From Gammaproteobacteria bacterium (GTDB lineage Bacteria > Cyanobacteriota > Vampirovibrionia > Vampirovibrionales > JAJTHC01): a stretch of DNA of 64,000 nt. The notes under the pieces are model-generated. The model made no database searches. It was not told the DNA's origin and saw only the letters and a program-made list of their open reading frames with translations. This document shows positions 307 through 62,542 of this stretch, piece by piece. Position numbers and translations under genes: made by a program. The stretch lies in NCBI GenBank assembly GCA_040375445.1, contig JBEISK010000001.1, positions 49,144-113,143 on the forward strand, given 5' to 3'. Positions within the stretch are counted from its first letter, which is position 1, and each line of letters opens with the position of its first letter.

Positions 307-539
307 TGGCAAGGGTTTCCAGTGAGTTCGTGAGGCATAATTGAGTTGTACAAGTCTATCAGAAACACACGAGCTTGTCTATAAAGGGTTTTGTATATTT
401 AAGATTCTATAAATGAAGCGAAAATACTAAAATCGTTGTCTAAGCAGACGTCCAAGCACTAAATCCGAGCGGGTGAGCGAACTGCGAATCCCCGAGCGAT
501 TTTGCGGACGTCGTGCAAAGGGAATGATGCGACGAGGTG

Positions 540-660
540 GGTCAAAAGGGGGTGGATTTTTAAGGAGGGGGAAATGAGGGAGGAGAAACGCAATACGTCC
601 TCCCTTCCCCCTCCTTAAATCGCCTTTGGAGGTTTGGAGGCTTTTGGCGACGCAAAAGTC
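540..660. repeat. cluster of GGAGG-rich imperfect palindromes (stem-loops), member of a hairpin-cluster family
   Basis: aaggagggggaaatgagggaggag...ctcctcccttccccctcctt and ggaggcttttg...caaaagtctcc are inverted repeats. The same CCCCTCC/GGAGGGG hairpin style recurs at 3218-3246, 4020-4140 and 35262-35360. Confidence 0.5.
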
Positions 661-878
661 TCCAAGCACCAGCTTAAGAAAGAAGTGAGAAACCAAAAAA
701 ACTAAAAGTGTTCAGGAAATGATAGGTTTAGCTATACTAAACGCCCAAAAATCCTTAAACCTTTCTAAAGACCCCCCTCTTTCGATATGTTTACGTTATA
801 ATTGTCTTGCTTATATATGAAATATCATATGAAGCATGTAGTCTTTTATATTTAAAAATGTATGGAGGTTAAAACCCA

Positions 879-2912: not shown

Positions 2913-2933
2913 AAAAAGAAGGGCTTGATTTCC

Positions 2934-3097
2934 GACACACGAAACCCTGTTTTTGACACACAAAACCCTCATTTCTGACACACGAAACCCTCGTTTCTGA
3001 CACACGAAACCCTCATTTCTGACACACGAAACCCTCATTTCTGACACACGAAACCCTCATTTCTGACACACGAAACCCTCATTTCTGACACACGGAA
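2934..3097. repeat. tandem direct repeat, 22-bp unit GACACACGAAACCCTCATTTCT, about 7.5 copies
   Basis: Copies counted at 2934, 2955, 2977, 2999, 3021, 3043 and 3065, plus a partial copy at 3087. Copies 4-7 are identical and copies 1-3 carry 1-2 substitutions or indels. The array is intergenic. Confidence 0.9.
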
Positions 3098-3217
3098 TTA
3101 AGAGATTTCGGTGGATTTTTGTCTCACCCTCTTGCGTTTCACTGGTTTTCAAGGAGCCACTCTTTTTCAGTATGACAACTTTTCGCTCCGATGCCTAGTG
3201 GCTAAAGCCCACTATTT

Positions 3218-3989: not shown

Positions 3990-4019
3990 ACAGTTCTGTT
4001 GGAAGTGCTGTCCCCTCTC

Positions 4020-4140
4020 CTAATTTTAGGAGAGGGAAGAGAACGTCTGAAAGACGTTCGAGGGTGAGGTTAAACCTTAGACTCCGTTGGTGAGTTTAAC
4101 CGCCCCCTAACCCCCTCCTAAAATTAGGAGGGGGGAGAGA
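4020..4140. repeat. nested palindromic hairpin cluster (GGAGG-rich family)
   Basis: Four inverted repeats: CCCTCTCCTAA..TTAGGAGAGGG, GAACGTCT-gaa-AGACGTTC, GGTTAAAC...GTTTAACC and CCCCCTCCTAAAATTAGGAGGGGGG. Confidence 0.55.
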
Positions 4141-6202: not shown

Positions 6203-7732
6203 ATGTTTAAGTCCAATAAGTCTACACTGCAACGCCTTTCTGTAGAAGCCCTTCTAAACCCTCGCGATTTTTCTTGGGAAGAAACCGCTGTTTACGCCGT
6301 TGCGCTGGATGCCATGCCGTCGCTTCGCTGGGACTATCAAGCATTTTCTCCGTCGACAGACCCGTGCTGGAGCCTGCCTCATGGGTATTTGAGCCAAGCC
6401 CAGCATGTGAGCCTGCATCCAGAGTGCCCCAATGCCTTGTGGATCTTGCAACGTTATGGGTATGGTCCGTGTGTGTATGTGCAAGGGGGCTTGCTGAAAG
6501 AAGCCTTGGCTGCCTTGCCACAAGACGCCTCTCTTTCTCAAGAAGACGTCTTGCATGGCGTGGTGTTTTACTTGGCACGGCATCATGCGCAAGCTTATGT
6601 GGAGCCTCCCACCAAAGTCCTGTATACCTGTGACGATGAAAGCGAGCTTAACGCTCATCGCTTTTTAGACAATCCTCATTTAGCGTCTTGGGCGGAAGAA
6701 CAAGCCAACGCCTTAGGCGTGAGTTTTCAAGCAGGCGTCTTGCAACCGTTGCTCAAAGAAGCGATCCCGCTCATCAGTATTTTAATTCCGTTTCGAGATG
6801 CCCCCGACTTGCTCAAGCAAGTGGTGGATTCGCTCTTGGCGTTCAAGGACCACTCGCCTCCTTTTGAAATCATCGGCATTAACAATCAAAGTCAAGATTC
6901 TGAAACCCTCGCTTTGATGCAGGCTTACGCTCAACACGACAACATCCATTTTGTAGATTATGACGCTTCCTTTAACTATGCCGCCATGATGAACCTAGGC
7001 GCTCAACAAGCCTTGGGGGACTTGATTTTACAACTCAATAATGACATTGAATTCATCACACCAACGACCTTGACGCAGTTGGCGTCTTGGGCGATGCTCC
7101 CGAGTATCGGCGCGGTGGGGGCCACCTTGTTTTATCCTGATGGGCGCATTCAACACATCGGTTGTCACTTGGGTGTATGGGGGCATGTGGGGCATGTGTT
7201 TCGTCTAAGAGATTTAAAGAGCGTGCCTGAGGCGTGGTCGCAGGTGCAACGCCCTGTGATTGCGGTGACAGGGGCCCTGCTGATGATGCGAAAATCGCTG
7301 TATTTCGAGTTGGGGGGTATGAATGAACAGGACTATAAAATAGGCTTTAATGACGTCGATTTGTGCCTTAAAGCCCATGAAAAGGGTTATACGAATATCT
7401 GCCTAAGTTCGGTGCAGGCGGTGCATTATGAAAGCGTCAGCCGTAAAAAAGCACCGAATAAAGTTAAGCATCAGCAAGAACGCCGTGAACGTCAAGCCTT
7501 TTATACGCAGTATGCCCATTTGCTCAAGCACTTTGACCCTACCTTTTCTCGAGGCTTTAACATGATGGGTGATATAGGGAATCCCTCTCCTTTCTTATGG
7601 AAAAGCCCGTTGATGCCTCGTTTGCTGACAGGACACATCCCCTTTACGCCGTGGCGTTTTTCAATCTTCCGCTCGGCGGATAAGTCCTTGCGTGTGATGT
7701 GGGACAAGCCCTTGAAGGAATCTGCACCATGA
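6203..7732 (+). CDS. glycosyltransferase family 2 protein with a roughly 190-aa N-terminal extension of unknown function
   Basis: The C-terminal half has GT-A hallmarks: ISILIPFRD, NNDIEF (DXD-like), YPDGRIQHIG. Confidence 0.75.
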   Translation: MFKSNKSTLQRLSVEALLNPRDFSWEETAVYAVALDAMPSLRWDYQAFSPSTDPCWSLPHGYLSQAQHVSLHPECPNALWILQRYGYGPCVYVQGGLLKEALAALPQDASLSQEDVLHGVVFYLARHHAQAYVEPPTKVLYTCDDESELNAHRFLDNPHLASWAEEQANALGVSFQAGVLQPLLKEAIPLISILIPFRDAPDLLKQVVDSLLAFKDHSPPFEIIGINNQSQDSETLALMQAYAQHDNIHFVDYDASFNYAAMMNLGAQQALGDLILQLNNDIEFITPTTLTQLASWAMLPSIGAVGATLFYPDGRIQHIGCHLGVWGHVGHVFRLRDLKSVPEAWSQVQRPVIAVTGALLMMRKSLYFELGGMNEQDYKIGFNDVDLCLKAHEKGYTNICLSSVQAVHYESVSRKKAPNKVKHQQERRERQAFYTQYAHLLKHFDPTFSRGFNMMGDIGNPSPFLWKSPLMPRLLTGHIPFTPWRFSIFRSADKSLRVMWDKPLKESAP

Positions 7733-10333: not shown

Positions 10334-10398
10334 AGCCATCTAGGGTCTCTTCGTTGTCGTTACGATGCCCTCCCCTAATTTAGAAAGCAGAAAACCCC

Positions 10399-18823: not shown

Positions 18824-18880
18824 TAGAGTGTCCTTGCCTTTTCACCCCAGCTTGTCTACAATAGAGTATAGCCATTTTTA

Positions 18881-18990
18881 GAGTTTTCTGTACCGTTGGC
18901 TAGACGAGGAGCCTAGATTATTTTGTGAGGGCGTGTAGATTGACCTACATAACAGAACAAAAAAATCGTAGCGACAAAGTATAGACCCTG
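18881..18990. repeat. dispersed intergenic repeat (REP/MITE-like family, copy A)
   Basis: gaggagcctagattattttgtgagggcgtgtagattgacctacataacagaacaaaaaaatcgtagcgacaaag is about 85% identical to 49937-50020. Confidence 0.6.
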
Positions 18991-19041
18991 TACAGGAAAT
19001 TATAAATATGGCTATAACGTCGTTATAAGGATGCCCCCCCT

Positions 19042-20337: not shown

Positions 20338-20349
20338 CATAGTATTTTA

Positions 20350-20460
20350 AAAAATCAACCATACAGTGTCTCTTCGTTGTCGCTACGATTCTCGATGTGC
20401 TTATGTACGTCTTTGTACACTTCACACATCTGCGAGTCTAGGCTCCTAGAATAGCCTACT
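20350..20460. repeat. dispersed intergenic repeat (same family, copy C, inverted orientation)
   Basis: Reverse complement carries ctaggagcctag... and ...atcgtagcgacaacgaagaga as its ends, matching copies A and B. The core TGTACGTCTTTGTACA palindrome is shared with 53941-53960. Confidence 0.6.
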
Positions 20461-20510
20461 GTCTGCTTAATTTTTTAAAACACTATACCTAAACGGTATT
20501 TGAGTTTCGA

Positions 20511-35233: not shown

Positions 35234-35261
35234 ATCTTTAGAGGGCTGTGCGAAAATGGAT

Positions 35262-35360
35262 TTACCCCCTCTCCCTTTGGGAGAGGGTTGGGGTGAGGGC
35301 TTCAGGATCGCCAGCTATAGCTGGTGTTTCCCTCATCCTAGCCTTCTCCCAAAGGGAGAA
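35262..35360. repeat. GGAGG-rich palindromic hairpin cluster
   Basis: CTCTCCCTTTGGGAGAGGG and CTTCTCCCAAAGGGAGAAG perfect palindromes. Confidence 0.5.
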
Positions 35361-35380
35361 GGAACAAAACAAAAGCCAAT

Positions 35381-35417
35381 AAAAAAGCCCTCTTCCTTGT
35401 GAGAAGAAGGCTTTTTG
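35381..35417. terminator. bidirectional rho-independent terminator between convergent TPR and flagellin genes
   Basis: AAAAAA-GCCCTCTTC-cttgtga-GAAGAAGGC-TTTTT. Confidence 0.6.
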
Positions 35418-35434
35418 GATGAACAAGGTGTTTG

Positions 35435-36289
35435 TTATCTAAGTAACTGTATCGCCAAGTTCGGAGCCTGATTGGCTTGACCAAGAACGGTTGCCGCTGC
35501 CTGTTGAAGAATCTGATTCTTAGTCATTTCAGCGGATTCCTTCGCCACATCCACGTTGCGGATGCGTGATTCACTGGCACTGAAGTTCTCGATCGAAATC
35601 GCTAAGTTCGTGCTAGCGGAAGTCAAACGATTACTCAAAGCACCAATAGACGCTCTTCGGTTACCGACACGCTGAAGGGCAATGTCAATCTTTGAAATCG
35701 CTTTCAAAGAAGAGGCGTTAGTGGTCACGCCGAACGCGACAACCGTACCTGAACCAATCCCTAAGCTGGTTTTGCTCAAAGTTCCTAAAGCCGATTGAGC
35801 TGAACCAATGTCTAAGATGTTGGTCCCTGAAGCGGATTCCGCTCCGACCTGAATTTTGAAAGTGGCGACAGAAGAAAAGAGCTTCTTCCCGTTAAATTCA
35901 GTGGCTTTGGCGATACGATCAACATCATTGGTCAGCTGTAACAATTCCTTGTTAATCGCTGAACGCTGATCGACACCGAGCGTATCGTTGGCCCCTTGTA
36001 CAGCAAGTTCACGCATACGTTGCAGGTTATCTGTAATCGTACTGAGTGACCCGTCTGCCGTGTTAAGAACGTTAATACCGTCTTGCACGTTATCATTGGC
36101 TTTTTGACTGCCTCTGATTTGAGATCGTAACGTTTCAGAAATCTGCAAACCCGCCGCATCATCGGACGCTTTGTTGATTCTGAATCCAGATGACAACTTC
36201 TCAAGTGATTTGCCTAGGTCCATGGTGTTTTTACCCAACAGACGTTGTGCATTGAGAGATTGCACATTGGTATTGATTTGAATACCCAT
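35435..36289 (-). CDS. flagellin, short form (D0/D1 only, 284 aa), paralog 1
   Basis: N-terminus INTNVQSLNAQRLL...LSSGFRINKASDDAAGLQIS and C-terminus ...MTKNQILQQAAATVLGQANQAPNLAIQLLR are canonical flagellin termini. Confidence 0.9.
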   Translation of the reverse strand: MGIQINTNVQSLNAQRLLGKNTMDLGKSLEKLSSGFRINKASDDAAGLQISETLRSQIRGSQKANDNVQDGINVLNTADGSLSTITDNLQRMRELAVQGANDTLGVDQRSAINKELLQLTNDVDRIAKATEFNGKKLFSSVATFKIQVGAESASGTNILDIGSAQSALGTLSKTSLGIGSGTVVAFGVTTNASSLKAISKIDIALQRVGNRRASIGALSNRLTSASTNLAISIENFSASESRIRNVDVAKESAEMTKNQILQQAAATVLGQANQAPNLAIQLLR

Positions 36290-36419
36290 AGTAAATGAAT
36301 CCTTTAATGTTTATTGCTAAAATAGAGTAAAGTAGAGTTGAAAGAGTTTCAACCGAATAAAGTAATGTCCGCCTCCTTTCGTAATGTTTTATGGTTCTAC
36401 ATGAAGTGTTAGAAGGTGA

Positions 36420-36449
36420 AGGGCTTAGTAAGGATAAACCAAGCCCCTT
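36420..36449 (-). terminator. hairpin between the two flagellin genes (AGGGCTT...AAGCCCT)
   Basis: 7-bp stem, 18 nt downstream of the stop of flagellin paralog 2. No strong T-run. Confidence 0.35.
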
Positions 36450-36467
36450 GCCTATAAGTTCAAAGGC

Positions 36468-37322
36468 TTAACCAAGTAACTTCAAGGCAAGCTGAGGGGA
36501 TTGGTTGGCTTGAGACAAGACCGTCGCCGCCGCTTGTTGAAGAATCTGATTTTTGGTCATGTTGGCAGATTCTTTCGCCACATCCACGTTACGGATGCGT
36601 GATTCACTGGCACTGTAGTTCTCGATCGAAATCGCTAAGTTCTGGCTAGCGGAACCCAAACGATTGGTCAACGCACCAATAGAGGCTCTTCGGTTACCAA
36701 CGCGCTGAAGGGCGATATCGATCTTTGAAATCGCTTTCAAAGAAGAAGCGTTGGTCGTTACGCCAAAAGCAACCACTGTACCAGAACCGATACCCAAGCT
36801 AGTTTTACTTAAAGTGCCTAAGGCTGAGCTAGCTGAACCAATGTCTAAGACGTTGGTACCTGAAGCGGATTCCGCTCCGACCTGAATTTTGAAAGTAGCG
36901 ACAGAAGAAAAGAGCTTCTTCCCATTAAATTCAGTCGATTTAGCAATACGATCAATATCGTTCGTTAGCTGTAACAATTCCTTGTTAATCGCTGAACGTT
37001 GATCGACACCTAGCGTATCGTTTGCACCTTGTACGGCGAGTTCACGCATACGTTGAAGGTTGTCTGTAATCGTGCTAAGTGAGCCGTCTGCGGTATTCAA
37101 AACGTTAATGCCGTCTTGAACGTTATCGTTGGCTTTTTCACTACCACGAATCTGAGATCTTAGGACTTCAGAAATCTGTAAACCAGCGGCATCATCCGAA
37201 GATTTGTTGATTCTGAATCCAGACGCTAACTGCTCTAAAGATTTGTTTAAGCCCATGGTGTTTTGGGTTAACAAACGTTGTGCATTAAGAGATTGCACGT
37301 TGGTATTAACATTAATAGGCAT
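36468..37322 (-). CDS. flagellin, short form (284 aa), paralog 2
   Basis: About 90% identical to paralog 1 at protein and DNA level. Own Shine-Dalgarno (AAGGAG). Confidence 0.9.
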   Translation of the reverse strand: MPINVNTNVQSLNAQRLLTQNTMGLNKSLEQLASGFRINKSSDDAAGLQISEVLRSQIRGSEKANDNVQDGINVLNTADGSLSTITDNLQRMRELAVQGANDTLGVDQRSAINKELLQLTNDIDRIAKSTEFNGKKLFSSVATFKIQVGAESASGTNVLDIGSASSALGTLSKTSLGIGSGTVVAFGVTTNASSLKAISKIDIALQRVGNRRASIGALTNRLGSASQNLAISIENYSASESRIRNVDVAKESANMTKNQILQQAAATVLSQANQSPQLALKLLG

Positions 37323-45115: not shown

Positions 45116-45286
45116 AAGATTCCATTCTTTATAGACGTCTGTTTAAAAAAACTAAACACGACTATACGTTAAAGACTTTATTCTATTGTGACAAAAAAGC
45201 AAAATCCTTGTTTACTTTTTTAACAAGTTTAGGTTAATTGACGTATAATGAACCATATACACTTGCCATTTAAAGGACTAGCCATC

Positions 45287-46363
45287 ATGCCTCAACTGAA
45301 TTTTTCCATGCCCACACGCCCACTCGGACGCACCGATGTTCAGCTCCCCCTCATCTGTTTGGGTACCATGACATGGGGGGAGCAAAACAGTCAAAGTGAT
45401 GCCTTTGCTCAAATGGATCTTGCCCTTGAACTCGGTGTGCATTTTTGGGATACCGCTGAAGTTTACGCCGTTCCCATTCGTGCCGAAACATCAGGACTCA
45501 CCGAAACTTATATCGGCAATTATTTTGCCTCTCGAAACGTACGGGATGAGGTCTTTTTAGCCACGAAAATATCAGGGCCGAGTGAACGCTTTGAATGGAT
45601 TCGAAACGGCAAACTCGATTTTAGTGCAAGCAGTCTTAAGCGTGCGGTGGAAGGCAGTCTTAAACGCCTGCAAACCGACCGTATTGATCTCTACCAGGTC
45701 CACTGGCCCGATCGTGCCGTGCCTATTTTCGGACAACGAGAATACGTCCATGCTGAAATGCCTGAAACGTCTCAGGTATTAGACCGGTTTTTAGAAACCC
45801 TTCATGCCTTGGATGAACTCATCCAAGAAGGTAAAATCTTGCACGTGGGACTTTCTAACGAAACACCATGGGGGACGATGCAATATCTCAATTTGGCTAA
45901 ACAGCATGACTTGCCTCGTATGGTCTCCATTCAAAATTGCTATAATCTATTGAACCGCACCCAAGAAGTGGGCTTAACGGAAGTGATGCACCGTGAAGAC
46001 ATTGGACTATTGGCGTATTCCCCCTTGGCAATGGGGATTTTGAGTGGAAAATATCTCCATCACCAGCACCCTAAAGGCAGTCGCATGGAGCTGTTTGGTG
46101 AGTACTTTGCTCGTTATACGACCCCTACAGCCCAAAACGCCGTCCAACGTTATGCGGATTTAGCTCACGCCCATGGCTTGACCCCAACCCAATTGGCGTT
46201 GGCGTTTGTGAATCATCAGCCCTTTGTTACCAGTAATATCATTGGGGCAACGACGCTTGAGCAGCTGGAAGAAAACATCCGCAGTGTGGAAGTAACGTTA
46301 ACGTCGGAAATCTTGGAAGAAATCAACGCCCTTCATGAAGATTTACCAAATCCCTGCCCTTAA
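45287..46363 (+). CDS. aldo/keto reductase (Tas-like)
   Basis: LGTMTWGEQNS, IDLYQVHWPD, LSNETPWG. Start taken at ATG 45287, preceded by AAGGA. Confidence 0.85.
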   Translation: MPQLNFSMPTRPLGRTDVQLPLICLGTMTWGEQNSQSDAFAQMDLALELGVHFWDTAEVYAVPIRAETSGLTETYIGNYFASRNVRDEVFLATKISGPSERFEWIRNGKLDFSASSLKRAVEGSLKRLQTDRIDLYQVHWPDRAVPIFGQREYVHAEMPETSQVLDRFLETLHALDELIQEGKILHVGLSNETPWGTMQYLNLAKQHDLPRMVSIQNCYNLLNRTQEVGLTEVMHREDIGLLAYSPLAMGILSGKYLHHQHPKGSRMELFGEYFARYTTPTAQNAVQRYADLAHAHGLTPTQLALAFVNHQPFVTSNIIGATTLEQLEENIRSVEVTLTSEILEEINALHEDLPNPCP

Positions 46364-46417
46364 GTTGTAGCGATTAAGTCAAGGCAAATAAAGCAGATGG
46401 TCTCCAAGCACTAAAAA

Positions 46418-46444
46418 ACAGGGAACGCTGGTAGCGTTCCCTGT
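46418..46444. terminator. bidirectional terminator hairpin between convergent AKR and ahpC genes
   Basis: ACAGGGAACGC-tggta-GCGTTCCCTGT, a perfect 11-bp stem flanked by an A-run and T-run. Confidence 0.65.
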
Positions 46445-46465
46445 GAAGTCTTGCGAGCCAGTAGC

Positions 46466-46987
46466 TTACAAGGTCGCTTGACCAGGTTTCCAGTTCACAG
46501 GGCAGTTGGCGCCTGTTTGGAAAGCCTGCACCGTGCGGATGATTTCATCCACATTGCGACCCACGGAAAGATCGTTCACCGTGTAGCTACGCACCGTTTG
46601 CTCAGGATCGATAATGAACACGCCACGGAAGCTAATGCCCTTGGCTTCATTTAAGACGCTGTAATCACGAGAAATCGCATGCGTAATATCGCTAAACAAC
46701 GGATAATTTACCGCACCTAGTGAAGATTCAGACCACGCCTTGTGACTGTAAACGCTGTCCACCGAACCGCCCAACACTTGAACATTCAATTTAGCGAACT
46801 CGGCAACCGCTTCGCTGAAGCTGATGATTTCGGTAGGGCAAACAAAGGTGAAATCTAATGGGTAGAAAAATAAAACGACCCACTTACCTGCTTTGGTATA
46901 CTCACTCAAGGTGACTTCGGTAATTTGACCGTTGGCATACGCACCTGTTTTGAAATCAGGGGCTTTTTGTCCGATTTGTAAAGACAT
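46466..46987 (-). CDS. ahpC: peroxiredoxin, typical 2-Cys AhpC/TSA type
   Basis: FTFVCPTEI peroxidatic-Cys motif and C-terminal resolving Cys in ANCPVNWKPGQATL. Confidence 0.9.
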   Translation of the reverse strand: MSLQIGQKAPDFKTGAYANGQITEVTLSEYTKAGKWVVLFFYPLDFTFVCPTEIISFSEAVAEFAKLNVQVLGGSVDSVYSHKAWSESSLGAVNYPLFSDITHAISRDYSVLNEAKGISFRGVFIIDPEQTVRSYTVNDLSVGRNVDEIIRTVQAFQTGANCPVNWKPGQATL

Positions 46988-49811: not shown

Positions 49812-49920
49812 CGATATTATTTGGCATTATCTAGCAAGTGGATGAAATCGTTCAAATAAGTACTGCTAAAAAGTAAAAAACAATGCTATAATGAGGTCAT
49901 AGTCTTAGTAATACCTTTTC

Positions 49921-50040
49921 AGGAATGAAAGATCGTGTTAGGAGCTTCTAGGAGCCTATATTTTTTTGTGCGGGCGTGTGGAAAGACCTACATAACCAAA
50001 CAAAAAAATCGTAGCGACAACGAAGATACAACACGAGGTT
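49921..50040. repeat. dispersed intergenic repeat (copy B)
   Basis: taggagcctat...gcgggcgtgtggaaagacctacataaccaaacaaaaaaatcgtagcgacaacgaaga, matching 18881-18990. Confidence 0.6.
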
Positions 50041-50081
50041 TTATTCTTGGAATGGTATAATGATATAAGGACATCTACCCT

Positions 50082-53329: not shown

Positions 53330-53878
53330 GTGAACATGAAGTCCTTATTTAGAAAAATAACCGTCGCCTTACTGGTGGTCGTCTCGTTATGTTCTTCCAC
53401 CTTGTTTATCGAAGGAGCGGATGCCGCCGCCAAAGCCAAGAAAAAAGGCACAGCGAAATCCTTGCCGAAAGAATGGGCACCCTATCAGCCCAAACTTACG
53501 TTACTCTTACAAAAAAGCCAAAATAAAAGCTTTTTCACCCCTCAAGACGGCGACACGTTAGATGAACTCCGCCAAGTCAGCGACGACTTTCAAGAACGTT
53601 ACGCTAAAGTCAAGGATGTCGCCCCAATTTTGTATCAACTCGGTTTGTTGTTTACCTATCGTGAAATGTGGTTTGAAGCCTTTGATGCCTTTTCAACGAT
53701 TAACGAACGTTTTCCACAAAGTCCTTATACGCCAAAAAGTAAATTTCAACTGCTTAAAATGAAAAAACGCTTGGGTGAAGATTATGCCGTATTAGAAGAA
53801 AGTCGGCACCCTGCGGAAGGGGATGCGTCCAGCTTAACGGGTGGTAGTAAAGTAGTGGCTCCTTTGAAAAAGCCTTAA
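53330..53878 (+). CDS. hypothetical secreted protein (signal peptide; one TPR-like segment)
   Basis: MKSLFRKITVALLVVVSLCSS signal sequence. Lys-rich after cleavage. Confidence 0.5.
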   Translation: MNMKSLFRKITVALLVVVSLCSSTLFIEGADAAAKAKKKGTAKSLPKEWAPYQPKLTLLLQKSQNKSFFTPQDGDTLDELRQVSDDFQERYAKVKDVAPILYQLGLLFTYREMWFEAFDAFSTINERFPQSPYTPKSKFQLLKMKKRLGEDYAVLEESRHPAEGDASSLTGGSKVVAPLKKP

Positions 53879-54023
53879 GAAGGCACAGAGAAAGTCCCAT
53901 TCGGCGAATCTTCTTTGTTAAAACAAGCCGTTTTTTTCGTTGTGTACGTCTATGTACACGCCTCAAAAGCCGTTTGTTTTTCCTTGAATCTTCATCCGAC
54001 TTGAACTTTCTCTGTGCCTTCTT
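53877..54023. repeat. MITE/REP-like element with perfect 19-bp terminal inverted repeats, related to the dispersed repeat family
   Basis: AAGAAGGCACAGAGAAAGT (53877-53895) and ACTTTCTCTGTGCCTTCTT (54005-54023) flank 109 bp that contain the GTGTACGTCTATGTACAC palindrome shared with 20350-20460. Both convergent flanking stop codons fall inside the arms. Confidence 0.7.
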
Positions 54024-56619
54024 ACAGCGACCACGTTTTCCAGCGCATCTGAGCATCCAAACGATCTAGCTCCCCATTAAGCCATTGCTTTAAAGCAGGC
54101 ACACTCGAAAAACGAAGATTCACCAAGCGTTGGGTTTCACTCAGTAAAGGCACCCAATTTTGTTGCACAAACACAGGCGGAAAACCTTCTAGCTTGCGTA
54201 CTTCTACATAGGTTGAAAACTCATCCCAAAACTGAAGCACTTGAGCTTCTTCCGCATTTGGGGAAGAAAATGTTTGCCGTAACAAGCTAGCGTACAAGCC
54301 CAATGCCTTACCTGTGGACGTAAGATACTTGCCTCCATAAGGCAGTTGTTGCGTCGTTAGGGGAAGTATATTTAGGGTGTTTGCATCTAAATGTGCGTTA
54401 GCAAACCATGTCCAGCCTGACACCCCATTTTTATGGAGCTGTTCACTACGCTCAATACGTTGAGCCCCTTCGAGCTTATGTAAGCCAACCCCACTCACCA
54501 AAAGCGTTCGGGTTGGTTTTAAACTTTGTTTCATTCGGGTAATTTGTTGGTTAAACGCCACCGTGTTTTCGGTGTACGCCATAGGAATTAGCCAATCAAT
54601 CCAGCCTCGTTTACTCCATGTCTCCCAATCTTGCTGAATTGCCTTGAGCCGGTCTTGCATCGGCAAAGGAAAAACAGCGGCAGATAAAATTAAATCAGAC
54701 TTTTTCGCCTTGAGTGTTTTGTTGACTTTCGACACAAAACGACTGATATTTTCAATCTTCCAACGATCAAAGGCCTCTTGATTTTCAGGCGTAGGACGCA
54801 AGCCCATTGCTTGATAAAAATTATAGAGACTCACCGAATTATAACCTGCACGCTGCGTCGTGGATTGAAAAGGATAACGAATGTAATCCAACTGCAAACC
54901 ATCGACCGCATAACGGTCGACAATTTCAGCATACCAGTCCACCAAAAACTGTTGAGCATCATAACTAGCAGGATCCAACCAATACTCATGTTGACCCTTT
55001 GGCACTTCTGAACCATCATTCATTAAAAGCTGTTGATTTTCAAACCTTACCGTGTTTAATAAAGGGCCTCTATCATCACTAGGCAAACCTAAAATACGGT
55101 TATGCCTTGTGTTTCCTACCGCAAAACACCAAACCCACGCATGCACTCTTAAGCCTAGTGCATGCCCCTCATTAACCGCTGTTAGAAGAGGATCCCAGTC
55201 TTTAATTAAAGGGTTTTGAACAGGTTGCATAATACTATTAGAGTAGACAGGAAACCCTGCGTTAATGGTTTCCACAAAAATATCCGTCATTCCCGCACGA
55301 GCCAATTGGGACAAACGAATTTTAAGATTTTCTGCATTTCCTAAACTCACGATACTACCCCTATCAAACCAAACACCATGGATTTGATTGGGCATATTTG
55401 GAAAAAGCAGTTTTTGCTTCATAAACATCAATTCTATAATCAGTGCCTTACTTTTTTGACGATATTCTTTATAATCACGCGTTTTACGTAAGGGTTTTAA
55501 GGCATCCATATGAGATTGGATTTGATTCATTTGCTCGGCATATTGAATTTTGTCCACATTTTTGCCTAAAAACTCAAAAGCTTGCATACGTTGCCACACA
55601 TCTGTTTCAAGAGAATTGTATTCTTGTTCGTAGTTACTGGCTTCTTCTTCAAAAGGCGCATAACATTCTTGAATACTTTTCACAACCATCATAGACTTCC
55701 ACTGATTAGCTAAGTCATAGAGACGTTTTAGCACATCATAACTGGGTTTTAATTTCGTAGATGCCTTTACTGAACTTGTCGCTAAAGTCGTATTGGTAGG
55801 TATCACTTTTCTAGGCAGATTAGATGAAGTGGACTTAATCGGATATTTTGATGCTTCTTTTTTAGGCGCATTTTTTGAAATGGGTTTAGGTGGAATAGGT
55901 GAAACAAAACCAAGATGAGGAAGTCCTGAACCACAATAAATAAACGGACTAGGCAACGTATAAAGATCACAACCTGAACCAAGCCGTTTAACTGGGAAAG
56001 GATTCGCAACGGTTAGACTGCCCGCCAGTGCTGTGTCTAACACACTGAGTTGTGAGGTACCTAAGCGATCTTCCATAAAGCTACGGTAGCGTGCCCATAA
56101 CAGTTTAAACTCATCTTCCCACTGTTTCTTGGTATCTATGGTGGCAAAAGGGTGAGCGACCAACACCACAGGCCACGGACGACGGATCAAGGTATCCACA
56201 AAAATCATGGCACTTTCATCAGGACTATTTTTACCATAAAGTAGGACTAAAGGCGGTTTAGCAATTCCCCCTTCTTGTACATCATTTAAAATATAGTCGA
56301 ATTGTGACGCACTTTTTGGAAAAAAATAAGTACCTTGCCCAACAACACTTTGTGTTAAAGCATAATCCAGCGTTTTTTGGGGATGCAACGGGACTTCTTC
56401 GATATAAGTCGTTGAACTCGTTGCTTGACTTAAATCAAATAAAACAAAGCTATTGGGGACTAAAGCCAACGCCTTGTGTGGAAGAAAGCACGCCAGCAAA
56501 AGAAGCAAGCCTATTGGTAAGAGGCATTTTAGTTTAGTAAGAAAGGAGATTTTAAAGATCACAATATGAAACGCTCTCTCCAAAGGTGACTTTAGTAGTG
56601 TATCAAAAATACAGTCCAT
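54022..56619 (-). CDS. GHL10-family (DUF4015, glycoside-hydrolase-like TIM barrel) protein with N-terminal signal anchor and a large N-terminal extension
   Basis: The central region (...WFDRGSIVSLGN...AGMTDIFVETINAGFPVYSNS...VHAWVWCFAVGN...) resembles the GHL10/YngK hydrolase-like family. 865 aa. Confidence 0.55.
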   Translation of the reverse strand: MDCIFDTLLKSPLERAFHIVIFKISFLTKLKCLLPIGLLLLLACFLPHKALALVPNSFVLFDLSQATSSTTYIEEVPLHPQKTLDYALTQSVVGQGTYFFPKSASQFDYILNDVQEGGIAKPPLVLLYGKNSPDESAMIFVDTLIRRPWPVVLVAHPFATIDTKKQWEDEFKLLWARYRSFMEDRLGTSQLSVLDTALAGSLTVANPFPVKRLGSGCDLYTLPSPFIYCGSGLPHLGFVSPIPPKPISKNAPKKEASKYPIKSTSSNLPRKVIPTNTTLATSSVKASTKLKPSYDVLKRLYDLANQWKSMMVVKSIQECYAPFEEEASNYEQEYNSLETDVWQRMQAFEFLGKNVDKIQYAEQMNQIQSHMDALKPLRKTRDYKEYRQKSKALIIELMFMKQKLLFPNMPNQIHGVWFDRGSIVSLGNAENLKIRLSQLARAGMTDIFVETINAGFPVYSNSIMQPVQNPLIKDWDPLLTAVNEGHALGLRVHAWVWCFAVGNTRHNRILGLPSDDRGPLLNTVRFENQQLLMNDGSEVPKGQHEYWLDPASYDAQQFLVDWYAEIVDRYAVDGLQLDYIRYPFQSTTQRAGYNSVSLYNFYQAMGLRPTPENQEAFDRWKIENISRFVSKVNKTLKAKKSDLILSAAVFPLPMQDRLKAIQQDWETWSKRGWIDWLIPMAYTENTVAFNQQITRMKQSLKPTRTLLVSGVGLHKLEGAQRIERSEQLHKNGVSGWTWFANAHLDANTLNILPLTTQQLPYGGKYLTSTGKALGLYASLLRQTFSSPNAEEAQVLQFWDEFSTYVEVRKLEGFPPVFVQQNWVPLLSETQRLVNLRFSSVPALKQWLNGELDRLDAQMRWKTWSL

Positions 56620-58522: not shown

Positions 58523-60610
58523 TTAGCGACTACTATAAAAACCAGGTTTTGGAGCAGCTGGAAGTGTATAAGATGTTCTTTGAAAATCTGCTGGCGGAGG
58601 CGGAGGGCTTTTTGACTCTATCGCTTTATAGCTTGAAATAGCTTTTTTTTGCTCCATAGTGTTCGAGGATATATTGGGTTTTGATACGTTTGCATTGAAG
58701 TGTTGCCCGTTGTCTACTATACGAGGTGTTAGCATAATAATGAGTTCTTTGTTTTGATGAGATCCGTCGTAGGTATTGCTTAGTCCTCTAAGAAAAGGGA
58801 TTTCACCCAACACAGGAATTTTATTATTACGTTGACGGTCATTACTTTGGGTCAACCCTGCAATAACAAAACTTTGCCCTTCTTTAAGAATAACATTTTC
58901 AGTTAACCAAGCTCGTGAAGAAATAAGTTGAATATCTCCTGTGCTAGAGGTTTGAGGGAATGAAAATTGTGGCTGTACCATCATGGAAATATCGCCATTG
59001 GCACCAATTCGGCTCCGAATATGTAAAACAATACCTGCAGATGCCTGTTGAGCAACTCGAGCAACGATATTGTTATTTTGATCACGTACATCGGTAAAGC
59101 CCTGAATCACTTCATCTTCAATTTTAATGGTGGCATCTTCATTGTTAAGTAGTAAAACAGAAGGACGAGAAATCACCTTAAGCTTACTTTCTGAGTGTAT
59201 AAAATTTAGTATGGCACTAAAGTTAGATGTATTTTGAATGGGATTTTTAACAAAACTAGCGATAGAATTCCCATTTAAATTGGCATTAAATCCTAAGGTG
59301 ACTTGCTTCAGCCGTGCTTGAATGGAAGGTGTGATGATTTTATCTAAACTATCAGCAAGCTCAATAACAGCCATTTCAACATAGACTTGTTCACGTTGCC
59401 TGTCGAATTCTTGAATAAATTCGTCGGCTTTCGCCAATTGTTGAACCGTGGCAAAAATGGTAATGGTGTTAAGGCGGGTATCGGGTAAAATAATAGGTCC
59501 GTTACTTGAAACAGTAGCTTGTGCGTTTTGAATAGGTCTTGAACGTAAGGTATGATCGTTTGATGTGCCTTGCCCCTCTTTTAAGCCTTCACTTGTCAGG
59601 GGGATGGGATTTCCTGTGGGCGTACCTATATTCGCACCACCTGCTGCACCACCTGCCGCACCGCCTGCCGCACCGCCTGCCGCACCGCCTGCCGCACCGC
59701 CTGCCGCACCGCCTGCCGCACCGCCTGCCGCACCACCTGCTGCACCACCTGCCGCACCACCTGCCGCACCACCTGCTGCACCACCTGCCGCACCACCTGC
59801 CGCACCGCTAATCATAATGGGGGGCGTAGAACCATTCGAAAAAACGGTAGCGGTTAAGGCGCTAGCGACTTCATCGGCTCTTTGAAAGTTTAATCGCCAT
59901 GTTTTACTGGCACGTTGAACGTCAATTTCACTAACTAAGCGAGCGGCTTCTTGAGCTTCTTGAACATCTGTTCTTAGCATTACCCGATTGGTCATGGGGT
60001 CAGCAAGGGCAATCGCAATATTTTGTGAATTGCCGCTTGCTGATCCAGCACCGGAACTCGTATTTGTACCTTCTGCTGAAGCCGGAAAACTTCCTCCTTG
60101 TGTTTGAGAAGAGCCTCCTGCGGTATTTTGGGCATAGGAAAAAAGGGTTGCATTTAAATAATCCGCCACATAGGTAGCTGGCAAATGTTTAACTTGAATG
60201 AAATGTGTTTCTTGTTGTTTGATTCCATTAGACGTCGTCGATTGTCGAGTGGTGACAAATAACGTACCCTGTTCAACATGGTAGTACAATTTACCCATTT
60301 GCTTTAAAGAAAGTAAAACATCTTCAACCGAAACGCCTTTAAAATCAAGGTTAACGAGTCGTGTTAAGTCATTGCCTAAGACAATGTTAAATTGAGCTTG
60401 TGAAGCAACGGCTTTAAGGGCTTCATCCATAGGAATGTTATGTAAGGTTAAATTAAGGGGTGTTTTAATGTTAGGCAGTTTAAGTTCTTCAGCAAAGGCG
60501 TTTTGAAAGGGGGCTATTAACATCAAAACACTTAAAAAAATTATAAAACTATGCGAAAAACAGGTCTTCTGTTTTAGAGACAAGCAAAGTAAGCTTACAG
60601 ATTTGAGCAT
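58523..60610 (-). CDS. secretin (GspD/PilQ superfamily), paralog B, with (GGAA)12 low-complexity insertion
   Basis: N-terminal signal/TM. N0-like domain (LNLTLHNIPMDEALKAVASQAQFNIVLG...VNLDFKGVSVEDVLLSLKQMGKLYYHVEQGTLFV). C-terminal secretin domain (...VISRPSVLLLNNEDATIKIEDEV...KIPVLGEIPFLRGLS...LIIMLTPRIV). The ATG directly follows the TAA of the upstream secretin. Confidence 0.85.
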   Translation of the reverse strand: MLKSVSLLCLSLKQKTCFSHSFIIFLSVLMLIAPFQNAFAEELKLPNIKTPLNLTLHNIPMDEALKAVASQAQFNIVLGNDLTRLVNLDFKGVSVEDVLLSLKQMGKLYYHVEQGTLFVTTRQSTTSNGIKQQETHFIQVKHLPATYVADYLNATLFSYAQNTAGGSSQTQGGSFPASAEGTNTSSGAGSASGNSQNIAIALADPMTNRVMLRTDVQEAQEAARLVSEIDVQRASKTWRLNFQRADEVASALTATVFSNGSTPPIMISGAAGGAAGGAAGGAAGGAAGGAAGGAAGGAAGGAAGGAAGGAAGGAAGGAAGGAAGGANIGTPTGNPIPLTSEGLKEGQGTSNDHTLRSRPIQNAQATVSSNGPIILPDTRLNTITIFATVQQLAKADEFIQEFDRQREQVYVEMAVIELADSLDKIITPSIQARLKQVTLGFNANLNGNSIASFVKNPIQNTSNFSAILNFIHSESKLKVISRPSVLLLNNEDATIKIEDEVIQGFTDVRDQNNNIVARVAQQASAGIVLHIRSRIGANGDISMMVQPQFSFPQTSSTGDIQLISSRAWLTENVILKEGQSFVIAGLTQSNDRQRNNKIPVLGEIPFLRGLSNTYDGSHQNKELIIMLTPRIVDNGQHFNANVSKPNISSNTMEQKKAISSYKAIESKSPPPPPADFQRTSYTLPAAPKPGFYSSR
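59634..59806. repeat. 12-bp tandem DNA repeat (GCCGCACCGCCT and variants, about 14 copies), in-frame, encoding (GGAA)n in secretin B
   Basis: Read directly from the sequence. The unit length is a multiple of 3. GC-rich repeats in an AT-rich gene. Confidence 0.9.
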
Positions 60611-62542
60611 TTAAGGACGCTCCTTTGTATTGAGAGAAAATGAACTCGTATTGCCTATTGGGTACACTTGAGGGAGGGGGGTGCCGTTGTTTTTAATGTT
60701 TTCTAGGGCTTGAAAATCCCGATCGATACGGTGAATAGGCGTTAGTTCAAGTTGATTAAGAATGTGGGGTGTAATTAGAATGAGTAATTCGCTTTTTGCA
60801 CTTGAACTGGCACTGGCTCTAAACATTGCTCCGACAATGGGTAAATCCGCCAGTCCTGGTATTTTCTGTTCGTTACTGGTGTCTCGAGCATCGACGAGTC
60901 CACCGATGACCATGCTTTCACCATCTTTTACACTAACCGCTTGAGCCACTAAATCACGGCTACGAACCAATTGAATAGAACTGGCACCTACGCCTGCACT
61001 CGCATATACCGAACTCACAATCGGACGAACACGCAAGGTGATGACACCATTCGCTCCTATTTTAGGTATGATATCTAAGGTAATGCCTGCGGATCCAATC
61101 AGTGGGGTGGTTTGTCCAAAAAATCCAGAACCTGACGCCGTGAATTCTTGTCCTCTCAATATCTGATCTGCAATAACAATCGCCGATTCTGTGTCATGGG
61201 TGGCGACAATATGGGGGCTTGCAATACTTTTTGCTTTGCCTGTTTGAATAAGGGCTTGAATCTGTAGATTAAGGTTGTCTACTTGAGGTACTTTTGGTAA
61301 GAAAGAGATATTATTACTTGTCCCAGGTGTTATGCTCCCTATATTAAAGCCCCAAGGACTTCCTGATTCGGTAAAATCTAATTTCATGCCCAGTTGTTTT
61401 AAAGCGGTTGAAGAGACTTCAATGAGATCCGCTTGAATAGAAACTTGTGGCGGTTTGGCATCTAATAAGGGTAGTAAGGATTCCGCTTCTTCAAGTTGAG
61501 ATTCTGTGGCTATAATCGTAAGCGTATTGTTTTTACTGTTGGGCATAACGATTGCCCCTAAGGTTTGCACTGTGTAAGTGGTTTGTGTTAAACCCTGAGT
61601 TCTGACTTTTATTTCTACACCACTCCCACCGCCAGAGCTACCACCACTAGTGCCACTCCCACCGCCAGAGCTACCACCACTAGTGCCACTCCCACCGCCA
61701 GAGCTACCACCACTAGCACCACTACTAGCACCACCAGAGCTACCACTACCGCCACCAGAATTACCTGTAATTTTATCTGCGCCACTACCTTCGGTCACGC
61801 CATTAAGGGTATCCGATACGCTGACTTGTGAAGTGACTCCATTAAGCCCAGCCGTCCCTCGATTACCAAAAACGACCGCTTCTAATTGACGAGCGACATC
61901 TAAAGCATGGGCGTAAGACAACTGATACACCCGTCGTAAACGAGGCACATCAAATTCGGGAATAGCTTTAAGTACCATTTTAACTTCATCATCTGTCCCA
62001 CTCACCACCAAGCTATTTTGGCGTTCATTGGCTTTGACGACAATACGTGTGGAGCCTGTGAATAAAGCGGTATTTAAAAAACTCGCCAACCATGCGGCAC
62101 TGGCATGTTGTAAGGCAATGGTCTTAGTATTGTAGCGATATAAACCGAGTTCTTGCCCCATGGCTTGCGAAGAAATCATCCAAATGTCTTTGCCGTAACT
62201 TTGTACACTTAGGCCGTGCATTCTTGCTAGGACTTTCAAGGCATCTAGCCCAGAGATACGATCTAGTTTTAGGGAGGCATTGCCAGTGACGCTTTCATCC
62301 ATAAGCACATTTAAGTGACTAAGTTTGGCAATTTTAGGAATCAATTCGTTTAAAGGTTCTCCTGTGGCTTCAATACTAATTAAGCCTTGACCTTCTGGGT
62401 ACACTTGGGCAAACGCTTCTGCTATTTGCGGATTTACTATAGCTAATAGGACGTATTGTAGGGTAAGTCCCCCTACAAGAATCAACCTTATTAAGTAAGG
62501 TAGAGTGCTAAGTACAGGCGTCCAAGGTGTACGTGTTGACAT
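60611..62542 (-). CDS. secretin (GspD/PilQ superfamily), paralog A, with Gly/Ser-rich repeat insertion
   Basis: N0-like domain (ISIEATGEPLNELIPKIAKLSHLNVLMDESVTGNASLKLDRISGLDALKVLARMHGLSV). Secretin core (...IASPHIVATHDTESAIVIAD...KIPGLADLPIVGAMFR...LLILITPHIL). GSGTSGGSSGG repeated three times. Confidence 0.85.
   Translation of the reverse strand: MSTRTPWTPVLSTLPYLIRLILVGGLTLQYVLLAIVNPQIAEAFAQVYPEGQGLISIEATGEPLNELIPKIAKLSHLNVLMDESVTGNASLKLDRISGLDALKVLARMHGLSVQSYGKDIWMISSQAMGQELGLYRYNTKTIALQHASAAWLASFLNTALFTGSTRIVVKANERQNSLVVSGTDDEVKMVLKAIPEFDVPRLRRVYQLSYAHALDVARQLEAVVFGNRGTAGLNGVTSQVSVSDTLNGVTEGSGADKITGNSGGGSGSSGGASSGASGGSSGGGSGTSGGSSGGGSGTSGGSSGGGSGVEIKVRTQGLTQTTYTVQTLGAIVMPNSKNNTLTIIATESQLEEAESLLPLLDAKPPQVSIQADLIEVSSTALKQLGMKLDFTESGSPWGFNIGSITPGTSNNISFLPKVPQVDNLNLQIQALIQTGKAKSIASPHIVATHDTESAIVIADQILRGQEFTASGSGFFGQTTPLIGSAGITLDIIPKIGANGVITLRVRPIVSSVYASAGVGASSIQLVRSRDLVAQAVSVKDGESMVIGGLVDARDTSNEQKIPGLADLPIVGAMFRASASSSAKSELLILITPHILNQLELTPIHRIDRDFQALENIKNNGTPLPQVYPIGNTSSFSLNTKERP
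61615..61760. repeat. 33-bp tandem DNA repeat (3 copies plus a degenerate fourth), in-frame, encoding GS-rich linker in secretin A
   Basis: CACTCCCACCGCCAGAGCTACCACCACTAGTGC repeated at 61621, 61654 and 61687. Confidence 0.85.

Follow-up and report, generated by a model that had tools for sequence, protein, structure and literature searches.

A recently inserted hairpin-forming MITE in Vampirovibrionales, probably mobilised in trans by an IS5-family transposase

We analysed a 64,000-nucleotide stretch of Vampirovibrionales DNA, referred to here as the window, and found between two of its convergent genes a near-complete palindrome, E147. It is best explained overall, with a probability of about 0.78, as a non-autonomous MITE of ~145 bp that was recently inserted, was mobilised in trans by an IS5-family transposase and forms a hairpin at the 3′ ends of both genes. 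E147 entered the TTAA of overlapping convergent stop codons, the central TA of which now stands on both sides of it. In the mechanism that we propose, the movement would have been driven in trans by an IS5-family DDE transposase recognising E147's own, different termini. Once in place the element would be transcribed together with the 3′ ends of both genes, and its transcript is predicted to fold with ~54 base pairs, probably serving to stabilise the RNA, as a barrier at the 3′ end or as a substrate for RNase III, by analogy with Correia and ERIC elements.

E147 spans 53876–54024 of the window (~149 bp with its TA flanks). A 19-nt arm, AAGAAGGCACAGAGAAAGT, lies at 53877–53895 and its reverse complement at 54005–54023; no further match to this arm occurred in the 64 kb with up to 3 mismatches allowed (0.01 expected). 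The sequence-only reading from which this work started had described perfect terminal inverted repeats of 19 bp. These were borne out and in fact reach 20 bp (53876–53895 and 54005–54024), and the arms extend to 29 nt at 90% complementarity. Perfect over 18 bp, or 20 bp counting TA, the terminal inverted repeats were located by arm search as AGAAGGCACAGAGAAAGT on the left (53878–53895, the 19-mer there being also the left end, at 350–368, of a decayed element in locus L007) and ACTTTCTCTGTGCCTTCT on the right (54005–54022). They lie within a 145-bp MITE body (53878–54022) that was delimited by the net insert relative to the relative L027, by likeness to a copy in L010 and by folding as one hairpin; it is listed on the minus strand, on which it runs in the same sense as the homologous copies, with ATAGAC as the apex loop. 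The 109-bp interior holds GTGTACGTCTATGTACAC at its exact centre (53942–53959). On the minus strand this reads as an apex hairpin, TGTAC-ATAGAC-GTACA, which was detected by an apex regular expression and shows a compensatory change in the fifth base pair. Around it, a conserved core at 53911–53988 (minus strand) is common to elements with other termini, with 94.9% identity over 78 nt to L033 172–248 and 98% over 51 nt to L030, L031, L032 and L038. As RNA, positions 53870–54030 folded into a single long hairpin of −64.2 kcal/mol on the plus strand and −73.5 kcal/mol on the minus strand (z of about −10 on either strand; 0 of 200 shuffles equally stable).

Both flanking stop codons lie inside the arms, as the sequence-only reading had it. 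The TAA of the plus-strand gene 53330–53878, whose 182-aa product had no Pfam match, is at 53876–53878 in the left arm, and that of the minus-strand GHL10 gene (54022–56619) is at 54022–54024 in the right arm. The left TA target copy (53876–53877) doubles as the first two bases of the first of these stops, a single TA standing at empty sites, and the right TA copy (54023–54024) together with 54022 forms the GHL10 stop. No open reading frame of at least 60 aa lies within the body; the sole listed frame that crosses E147 (53754–54056, 100 aa) reaches far into both neighbouring genes and looks spurious. Because an independent Logan contig (L001) is identical to the window, E147 is not an artefact of one assembly. 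That contig ends at the palindrome centre, and breaks inside palindromes were seen in four contigs from independent assemblies (L001, L034, L039 and L052).

Comparison of aligned genomes, for which homologues of the 182-aa gene and of the M16 peptidase were followed to the contigs that carry them, shows E147 to be a recent insertion into the TTAA at which two convergent genes overlap by their stop codons. In the closest relative, a sister lineage (L027/L028) whose flanks at this site have 94.5% nucleotide identity to the window, the element is absent: the two convergent genes of L027 overlap at ...aagccTTAAattgacc..., where the plus-strand TAA and the minus-strand TAA share one TTAA (ccTTAAa). 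The site is likewise empty in L029, whose homologue of the 182-aa protein is 82% identical, and in all of L030–L042, which represent two further species and for which the gene tables give a 4-nt overlap. Since outgroups at three distances are all empty, insertion in the window lineage is the parsimonious reading. The window retains the flanks seen in L027 and has gained a net 147 nt between them, consistent with a 145-bp element and a duplicated TA, and its junctions read gccT-TA-[AGAAGG...CCTTCT]-TA-cagc. Both flanking proteins keep their length because the terminal A of E147 on each strand completes a TAA. To the right of the junction 3 of 4 bases differ from L027, and the GHL10 C-terminus has gone from ...WSI to ...WSL via three substitutions beside the junction. 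Taken alone, the duplication at E147 is compatible with TA, TTA or TTAA/TTAC, so its size is ambiguous there.

The size of the duplication was clearer at a sibling element. The nearest homologues of the window proteins were annotated as Vampirovibrio or Vampirovibrionales MAGs, and five of the related loci (L030, L031, L032, L033 and L038) carry, between groES and the IMPDH gene, an element that equals E147 in total length and layout. Its central 51–78 nt are 95–98% identical to E147, the coding DNA of these L030-type genomes being 82% identical to the window, and a small indel separates the L030 and L033 elements. In all five the filled site has the sequence catggat-TA-GGTAGTGTCGACATT...AATGTCGACACTACC-TA-Aac, and the empty site in L036, L040 and L041 reads catggatTAAa. 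The pair shows an unambiguous TA duplication, at a second TTAA. The target-site duplications that the sequence-only reading had proposed to look for were thus found in a form that fits TA. Together with one of the copies described below (B2), E147 and the L030-type element make three filled/empty pairs in all.

Another close copy was found in L010, at 6540–6663 on the opposite strand, with 94.4% identity to E147 positions 13–137 over 125 nt. This copy sits in the 5′ leader of an M16 peptidase gene; across coding DNA, identity between that genome and the window is only 73.5%. Copies that are 94–98% identical in genomes whose genes are 73–82% identical speak for either selection on the core or recent horizontal transfer, and a copy on a prophage-like contig (L047, below) makes phage a possible vehicle for the latter. 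In L007, a Vampirovibrionales MAG, the left terminus of E147 is matched at 19 of 19 positions (350–368) and a decayed right terminus at 14 of 19, and the interior differs from that of E147, being 89% identical to another palindromic element of the window (35252–35340). A decayed right-arm fragment of the E147 type was also present in L040 (17664–17701). The copies and decayed remnants in other genomes show that the E147 family is old in the clade and has been recently active. When 185,579 species genomes, JGI metagenomes and IMG/VR were scanned for the exact 19-mer terminus, one real relative came up, that in L007, the other matches being single-armed, within coding sequence and attributable to chance; a 23-mer from the E147 core had 0 matches in viral contigs. 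Across those collections and the window there was one full-length copy with exact E147 termini.

The 64-kb window holds four copies of the E147 superfamily, one of which has E147 termini. The other three, which we call family B, are B1 (18867–19003, plus strand), between a promoter-like site (18834–18862) and an M50 peptidase gene (19042); B2 (49913–50057, plus strand, ~145 bp), in the 5′ leader of an M16 peptidase gene (ATG 50082); and B3 (20346–20465, minus strand), between the converging genes for an M50 peptidase and a deformylase. Every B copy takes the form of a long hairpin. A 31-nt remnant of a family-B end lies at 10336–10366 (minus strand) and is 87% identical to 20359–20389. The two ends that the sequence-only reading had listed as shared were each recovered in all three copies, ATCGTAGCGACAACGAAGAGA at 20369–20389(−), 50008–50028(+) and 18965–18985(+), and CTAGGAGCCTAG at 20438(−), 18905(+) and 49948(+). 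The first of these, for which 0 occurrences were expected, also occurs at 10346–10366(−); this is the 21-nt fragment that had been placed at 10344–10364, which exists with its position corrected by two nucleotides. The identity of ~85% quoted for two of the copies came out at 85–89% (18907–18986 against 49950–50029). The recurrence of the E147 internal palindrome in the repeat at 20350–20460 was also confirmed, at 20403–20420 with 2 mismatches. The connection between E147 and family B that it implied is real and had been understated, as ~40 central nucleotides are common to both (TTTTG.GAGGGCG-TGTAS-AWWGAM-STACA-TAAC), not just a 16-nt palindrome. In the central hairpin, TGTAS-AWWGAM-STACA, the fifth apex pair shows a compensatory C-G / G-C change. 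When the apex expression TGTRS-N6-STACA was run over 356 kb of Vampirovibrionales DNA it matched element copies only, with 0 chance hits (4 matches in the window, 1–2 per L030-type contig and 1 in L010). At the sequence level, family B is part of the superfamily of E147.

Insertion was apparent for family B as well. B2 is a net 149-nt insertion with TAAT on either side, placed downstream of a conserved extended −10 (TGcTATAAT) and upstream of the M16 ribosome-binding site, and the M16 leader is without it in the sister lineage L052 and in L030/L040. L010 carries its E-type element at the very spot of B2, and L052 has a B1-type copy ~100 nt farther upstream. B1 matches L031 109–245, at a different locus, with 85% identity over 137 nt (a copy is also present in L032), and the leader of B1's gene is ~100 nt shorter in L008. 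Furthermore, the prophage-like IMG/VR contig L047 has a B-type copy with an E-type apex just downstream of a large serine recombinase, and this copy lies immediately against the 3′ end of a gene for an IS5-family transposase. Reassortment was seen both ways, with E147 termini around another interior in L007 and the E147 interior between other termini in L010 and the L030-type elements, and the mosaic character proposed by the sequence-only reading is supported in both directions. By these comparisons the E147 family is a real, recently active MITE family whose ends and cores reassort. The same core sits between unrelated terminal repeats.

A candidate for the mobilising activity came from the sibling element. 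A C-terminal transposase fragment from L047 led to Vampirovibrio sp. CP050876.1 (locus L049), which contains two 848-bp insertion sequences that are 99.9% identical and encode overlapping OrfA and OrfB, both matching NCBIfam NF033580, IS5 family transposase. At their ends the two read TA|GGTAGTGTCGACAT...ATGTCGACACTACC|TA, exactly the L030-type terminal repeats, and in the DNA that we fetched the 16-mer TAGGTAGTGTCGACAT was present only in L030-type elements and at both ends of the two L049 insertion sequences. These termini identify the IS5 family as the putative transposase family for the L030-type sibling, which has its size, core and duplication in common with E147. The four reconstructed targets, TTAA, TTAA, CTAG and TTAG, all fit YTAR. 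E147 itself has flanks that fit a duplicated TA and a YTAR target, as does the 848-bp insertion sequence, and the terminal-repeat sequences of the two are unrelated; a YTAR-like target is a known IS5-family preference. The E147 interior is not an internally deleted form of the insertion sequence but a conserved hairpin unrelated to it, and a comparison of the insertion sequence with the window and all loci revealed nothing similar beyond its terminal repeat. No insertion sequence with AGAAGGCACAGAGAAAGT ends was found in exact-match scans of the collections searched (species genomes, metagenomes and viral contigs). There was also no transposase among the 51 window proteins scanned, which are housekeeping in nature (GroEL, rml, lpx, aro, RecA, the nuo operon, flagellins, secretins and M16/M50 peptidases). 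A second IS5-family element, in L047 and as a degenerate copy at L049 9400–10200, gave no convincing terminal repeats and no link to E147 or family-B ends.

We then considered whether the hairpin might have a role as RNA. In an alignment of four sequences (E147, L010, L033 and L030) 98% of the cells of the consensus hairpin pair. Compensatory double changes were found in 19 of 50 pairs, compared with 1–4 in slid controls, and 0 of 500 shuffles reached 19; all 19 fall in the two outer helices, the inner helices being essentially invariant. Because these changes mostly reflect replacement of matched ends, that is, of terminal inverted repeats, the covariation is not proof of selection at the RNA level. 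The apex-sense strand folded 2–12 kcal/mol better than its complement in 8 of 8 copies, and the copies in unidirectional leaders were in sense orientation (3/3). The strand asymmetry and the sense orientation lean weakly towards an RNA role or a strand-specific constraint, the copies being related by descent and few in number. Conservation peaks at the centre and is lowest at the termini, the opposite of what simple recognition by a transposase would lead one to expect.

The sequence-only reading had also raised a terminator or RNA-element role. Terminator-like matches, including the one at the E147 junction, occur at chance frequency; on the minus strand the left junction has a small GC hairpin followed by a T-run. 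A scan of the whole window at Rfam 15 gathering scores gave 0 hits, a permissive Rfam scan of E147 gave noise only (E > 1), no tRNA or tmRNA genes were found in the window, and the promoter scan revealed no promoter in or beside E147. Two further candidates were rejected. An upstream open reading frame in the core, MKIQGKTNGF, can be read in E147 (minus strand) and L010, and the L030-type copy is without its start codon. An integron attC site was set aside by inspection, since the ends misfit RYYYAAC/GTTRRRY and no cassette array or integrase is nearby. As a speculation, the apex fits TGTA-N8-TACA, an operator of the NtcA/CRP type, and B1 is without a −10 box at the expected spacing.

Among the alternatives to a trans-mobilised MITE, a possible though clearly less probable one is that the conserved central hairpin (~50–80 nt, its apex flanked by AAACGGCTT repeats) is itself the selected or self-propagating unit and the termini are interchangeable shells. 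Such a unit could be a protein-binding or RNA module, or it could give rise to new MITEs by fold-back copying of an adjacent insertion-sequence end. The same core recurs at 95–100% identity in at least four shells (E147, L010, IS5-type and family B), and the confinement of compensatory changes to the outer helices, around essentially invariant inner ones, would be in keeping with it, but matched terminal repeats give covariation by definition and the signal is not specific to this explanation. The better folding of the apex-sense strand in all eight copies and the sense orientation of all three leader copies also argue for it; the eight copies, however, share the core by descent and are not eight independent observations, and an orientation of 3/3 corresponds only to p = 0.125. 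Further points in favour of this alternative are the B-type copy that abuts an IS5-family transposase gene end in L047 and the L030-type element, each arm of which is closer to the right end of the insertion sequence than to its left end, although past the terminal repeat this likeness covers only 7 of 9 nt. The central hairpin has, moreover, no Rfam match and no known binding protein or RNA function. If it were a module, a common RNA or protein-binding site might be delivered to the 5′ leaders and 3′ ends of host genes; if fold-back seeding were at work, the result would be the same 50–80-nt core between unrelated but perfectly matched terminal repeats.

The preferred reading, an IS5-mobilised MITE, has also to be weighed against other transposases and against an immobile palindrome. 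That E147 is an IS630/Tc1-mariner-type (Stowaway-like) MITE is unlikely: duplicating TA within a TTAA is what characterises that superfamily, but the gene tables of ~400 kb of related DNA that we fetched contain no IS630-family gene, and the only insertion sequence with termini matching the sibling is of the IS5 family and duplicates TA too. The sequence-only reading had named Tc1/IS630 as a possible specific partner, and the only partner found, that of the sibling, speaks against it. Its label of MITE/REP-like was right in its first half, as the filled and empty sites, flanks that fit a TA duplication, the non-orthologous copies and the IS5-family terminal repeats of the sibling support a MITE. 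The REP half, with its IS200/IS605 transposase, did not hold, no RAYT or Y1 transposase being found among the window proteins scanned, the size being wrong and a TA duplication being present. It is very improbable that E147 is a REP/REPIN-type repeat moved by RAYT, an IS200/IS605-like Y1 transposase. E147 is palindromic, intergenic and mosaic like BIMEs, and the family-B end contains CGTAGCG; its unit, however, is 145 bp as against 20–40 bp for REP, Y1 transposition leaves no duplication of the kind seen here, Y1_Tnp had 0 hits among the 51 window proteins and the sibling carries the termini of a DDE-type insertion sequence. It is equally improbable that the palindrome is immobile, having evolved locally as a structured 3′ UTR or bidirectional terminator, or that it arose as an artefact of assembly. 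Its position between convergent genes, its very stable hairpin and the GC hairpin with T-run at the left junction would suit a terminator, but close and distant relatives show a precise empty site at this locus, other genomes carry near-identical copies at different loci, and the identical independent Logan assembly argues against an artefact. On the alignments, this explanation is already refuted by the comparison of filled and empty sites and by the non-orthologous copies.

Collectively, these data document an active MITE family in Vampirovibrionales, a little-studied lineage, and otherwise describe an ordinary kind of bacterial repeat; a literature search combining Vampirovibrio with MITE or inverted repeat returned no relevant paper. 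For bacterial MITEs the evidence is unusually clean, with three filled/empty pairs between lineages that are ~94.5% identical, and it owes further clarity to an insertion that rebuilt both overlapping stop codons and to the IS5-family partner of the sibling subfamily. The less ordinary aspect of the family is the reassortment of cores and termini. There are also practical consequences. The palindromes break metagenome assemblies of Vampirovibrionales, several contigs ending at a hairpin centre, and the elements alter the 5′ leaders of protease genes between close strains, which makes them useful strain markers and candidate regulators.

Vampirovibrionales are the non-photosynthetic sister group of cyanobacteria, whose small dispersed repeats (SDR) and MITEs, including Nezha, form nested, mosaic palindromic repeats in intergenic DNA. 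The cyanobacterial SDR reportedly described by Elhai et al. in 2008 are 21–27 nt long and are not known to make a target duplication. Set beside the cyanobacterial SDR and MITEs, the E147 family is likewise mosaic and intergenic, and a small indel within a larger repeat also distinguishes its L030 and L033 elements. MITE derivatives of the IS5 family have their eukaryotic counterpart in Tourist with PIF/Harbinger. The L030-type sibling has both the 16-bp ends, exactly, and the TA flanks of the 848-bp IS5-family insertion sequence, and the termini of E147 match no insertion sequence found. ERIC/IRU of enterobacteria and RUP of Streptococcus pneumoniae are, like E147, imperfect palindromes (~107–127 bp) with TA termini and a target duplication, although their terminal repeats are shorter (7–9 bp). 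They are inserted in transcribed intergenic regions, and how ERIC affects mRNA stability depends on its orientation. The insertion sequence to which RUP is linked is of the IS630 type, and that linked to the sibling of E147 belongs to the IS5 family.

Bacterial MITEs in general are 100–200 bp long, with terminal inverted repeats, 5′-TA-3′ termini, target duplications and long stem-loop transcripts (PMC2229807), and the preferred reading of E147 agrees with this profile. The nearest architectural parallel to E147 is the Correia/NEMIS element (CREE) of Neisseria, which is 100–155 bp long with long terminal inverted repeats, TA termini and a duplication (PMC2229807; PMC2649163), and the main family of which, like E147, is without an identified cognate transposase (PMC2229807; PMC2649163). 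Correia/NEMIS elements are intergenic and co-transcribed as long hairpins, a likeness to E147 that is architectural, E147 being presumed to be co-transcribed (PMC2229807). Both families are mosaic, with end variants and internal indels (PMC2229807; PMC2649163). RNase III processing, IHF binding and promoter creation have been shown for Correia elements. The two have no apparent sequence similarity and belong to different phyla, their likeness being of architecture only, and conservation is distributed differently within them: the terminal repeats are the conserved part of Correia elements, whereas the E147 family keeps its centre and exchanges its termini.

We found that a stretch of non-coding DNA, some 230-300 nt long, lies near groES at window positions 430-662 (about 395-700 with its flanks) and contains a palindrome at 559-619. 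It was ~95% identical to positions 4251-4483 of L040, a locus from a related genome, where the copy is bounded by ATTTTGGGGT and ACCCCAAAAT and has the opposite orientation with respect to groES. Comparison of the spacers revealed that the segment is absent from the same groES-IMPDH spacer in five other related loci (L030-L033 and L038), and an Rfam search with it returned nothing beyond generic hairpin noise. The segment may be a further element that can move or invert; alternatively, it may encode an sRNA.

In the sibling MITE between the groES and IMPDH genes of those five loci, strains of one species differed by a 27-nt internal indel (L030 2867-2893 versus L033 about 222-226), with ctgattgcttgcaatcactcgcaaagcgaac in L030 in place of aaaa in L033. 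The additional piece is palindromic in its own right (TGATTGC..GCAATCA), and no other occurrence of it was found in the related DNA compared here. The IMPDH-AhpC spacer of L030-L039 holds a two-gene AAA_15/DUF4276 cassette (L030 4681-6409), which is missing between these genes in L040 and L041. In the window (45248-46987), the AhpC neighbour on the corresponding side is an aldo/keto reductase gene rather than IMPDH, so this spacer is not strictly comparable.

Repeats were also found in tandem. Downstream of groEL, about 8 copies of a 22-nt repeat, TTTCTGACACACGAAACCCTCA, occupy window 2928-3103, and copy number varied among the orthologous arrays of L030, L031 and L040. Tandem flagellin genes (85% mutual identity) and tandem secretin genes are located at 35435-37322 and 58523-62542, respectively; the latter contain long glycine-rich low-complexity repeats (59597-59844 and 61620-61772) that vary in length between relatives.

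The prophage-like contig IMGVR_UViG_3300047094_003217 (L047 8437-10769) carries terminase, ParB-methylase, DUF5681 and DUF2924 genes and ends, in order, with a large serine recombinase gene, a B-type MITE (a hairpin sharing its central core with the 147-bp MITE E147) and a truncated IS5-family transposase gene. The break at this MITE/transposase end was seen in both independent contigs. In three different genomes a conserved motif, CTAGAATAGYCTAMYGYCTGCTTAATTYTTTTAAAACACTA, closely follows gene ends (window 20445-20490, L007 268-300 and L008 16085-16130, minus strand); it adjoins the B-type hairpin, yet is separate from it.

Between the convergent TPR and flagellin genes, a composite palindromic element (window 35240-35375) was 89% identical to the sequence that lies between the E147-type termini of the L007 element, and is followed by a bidirectional intrinsic terminator of textbook form (35383-35418). 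Another palindrome, of the CCCCTCTCCTAATTTTAGGAGAGGG type with 29-nt arms, was located at 4008-4139. Since 37 nt of it recur at 92% identity in a related contig (L010 11752-11788), it represents another dispersed palindromic family.
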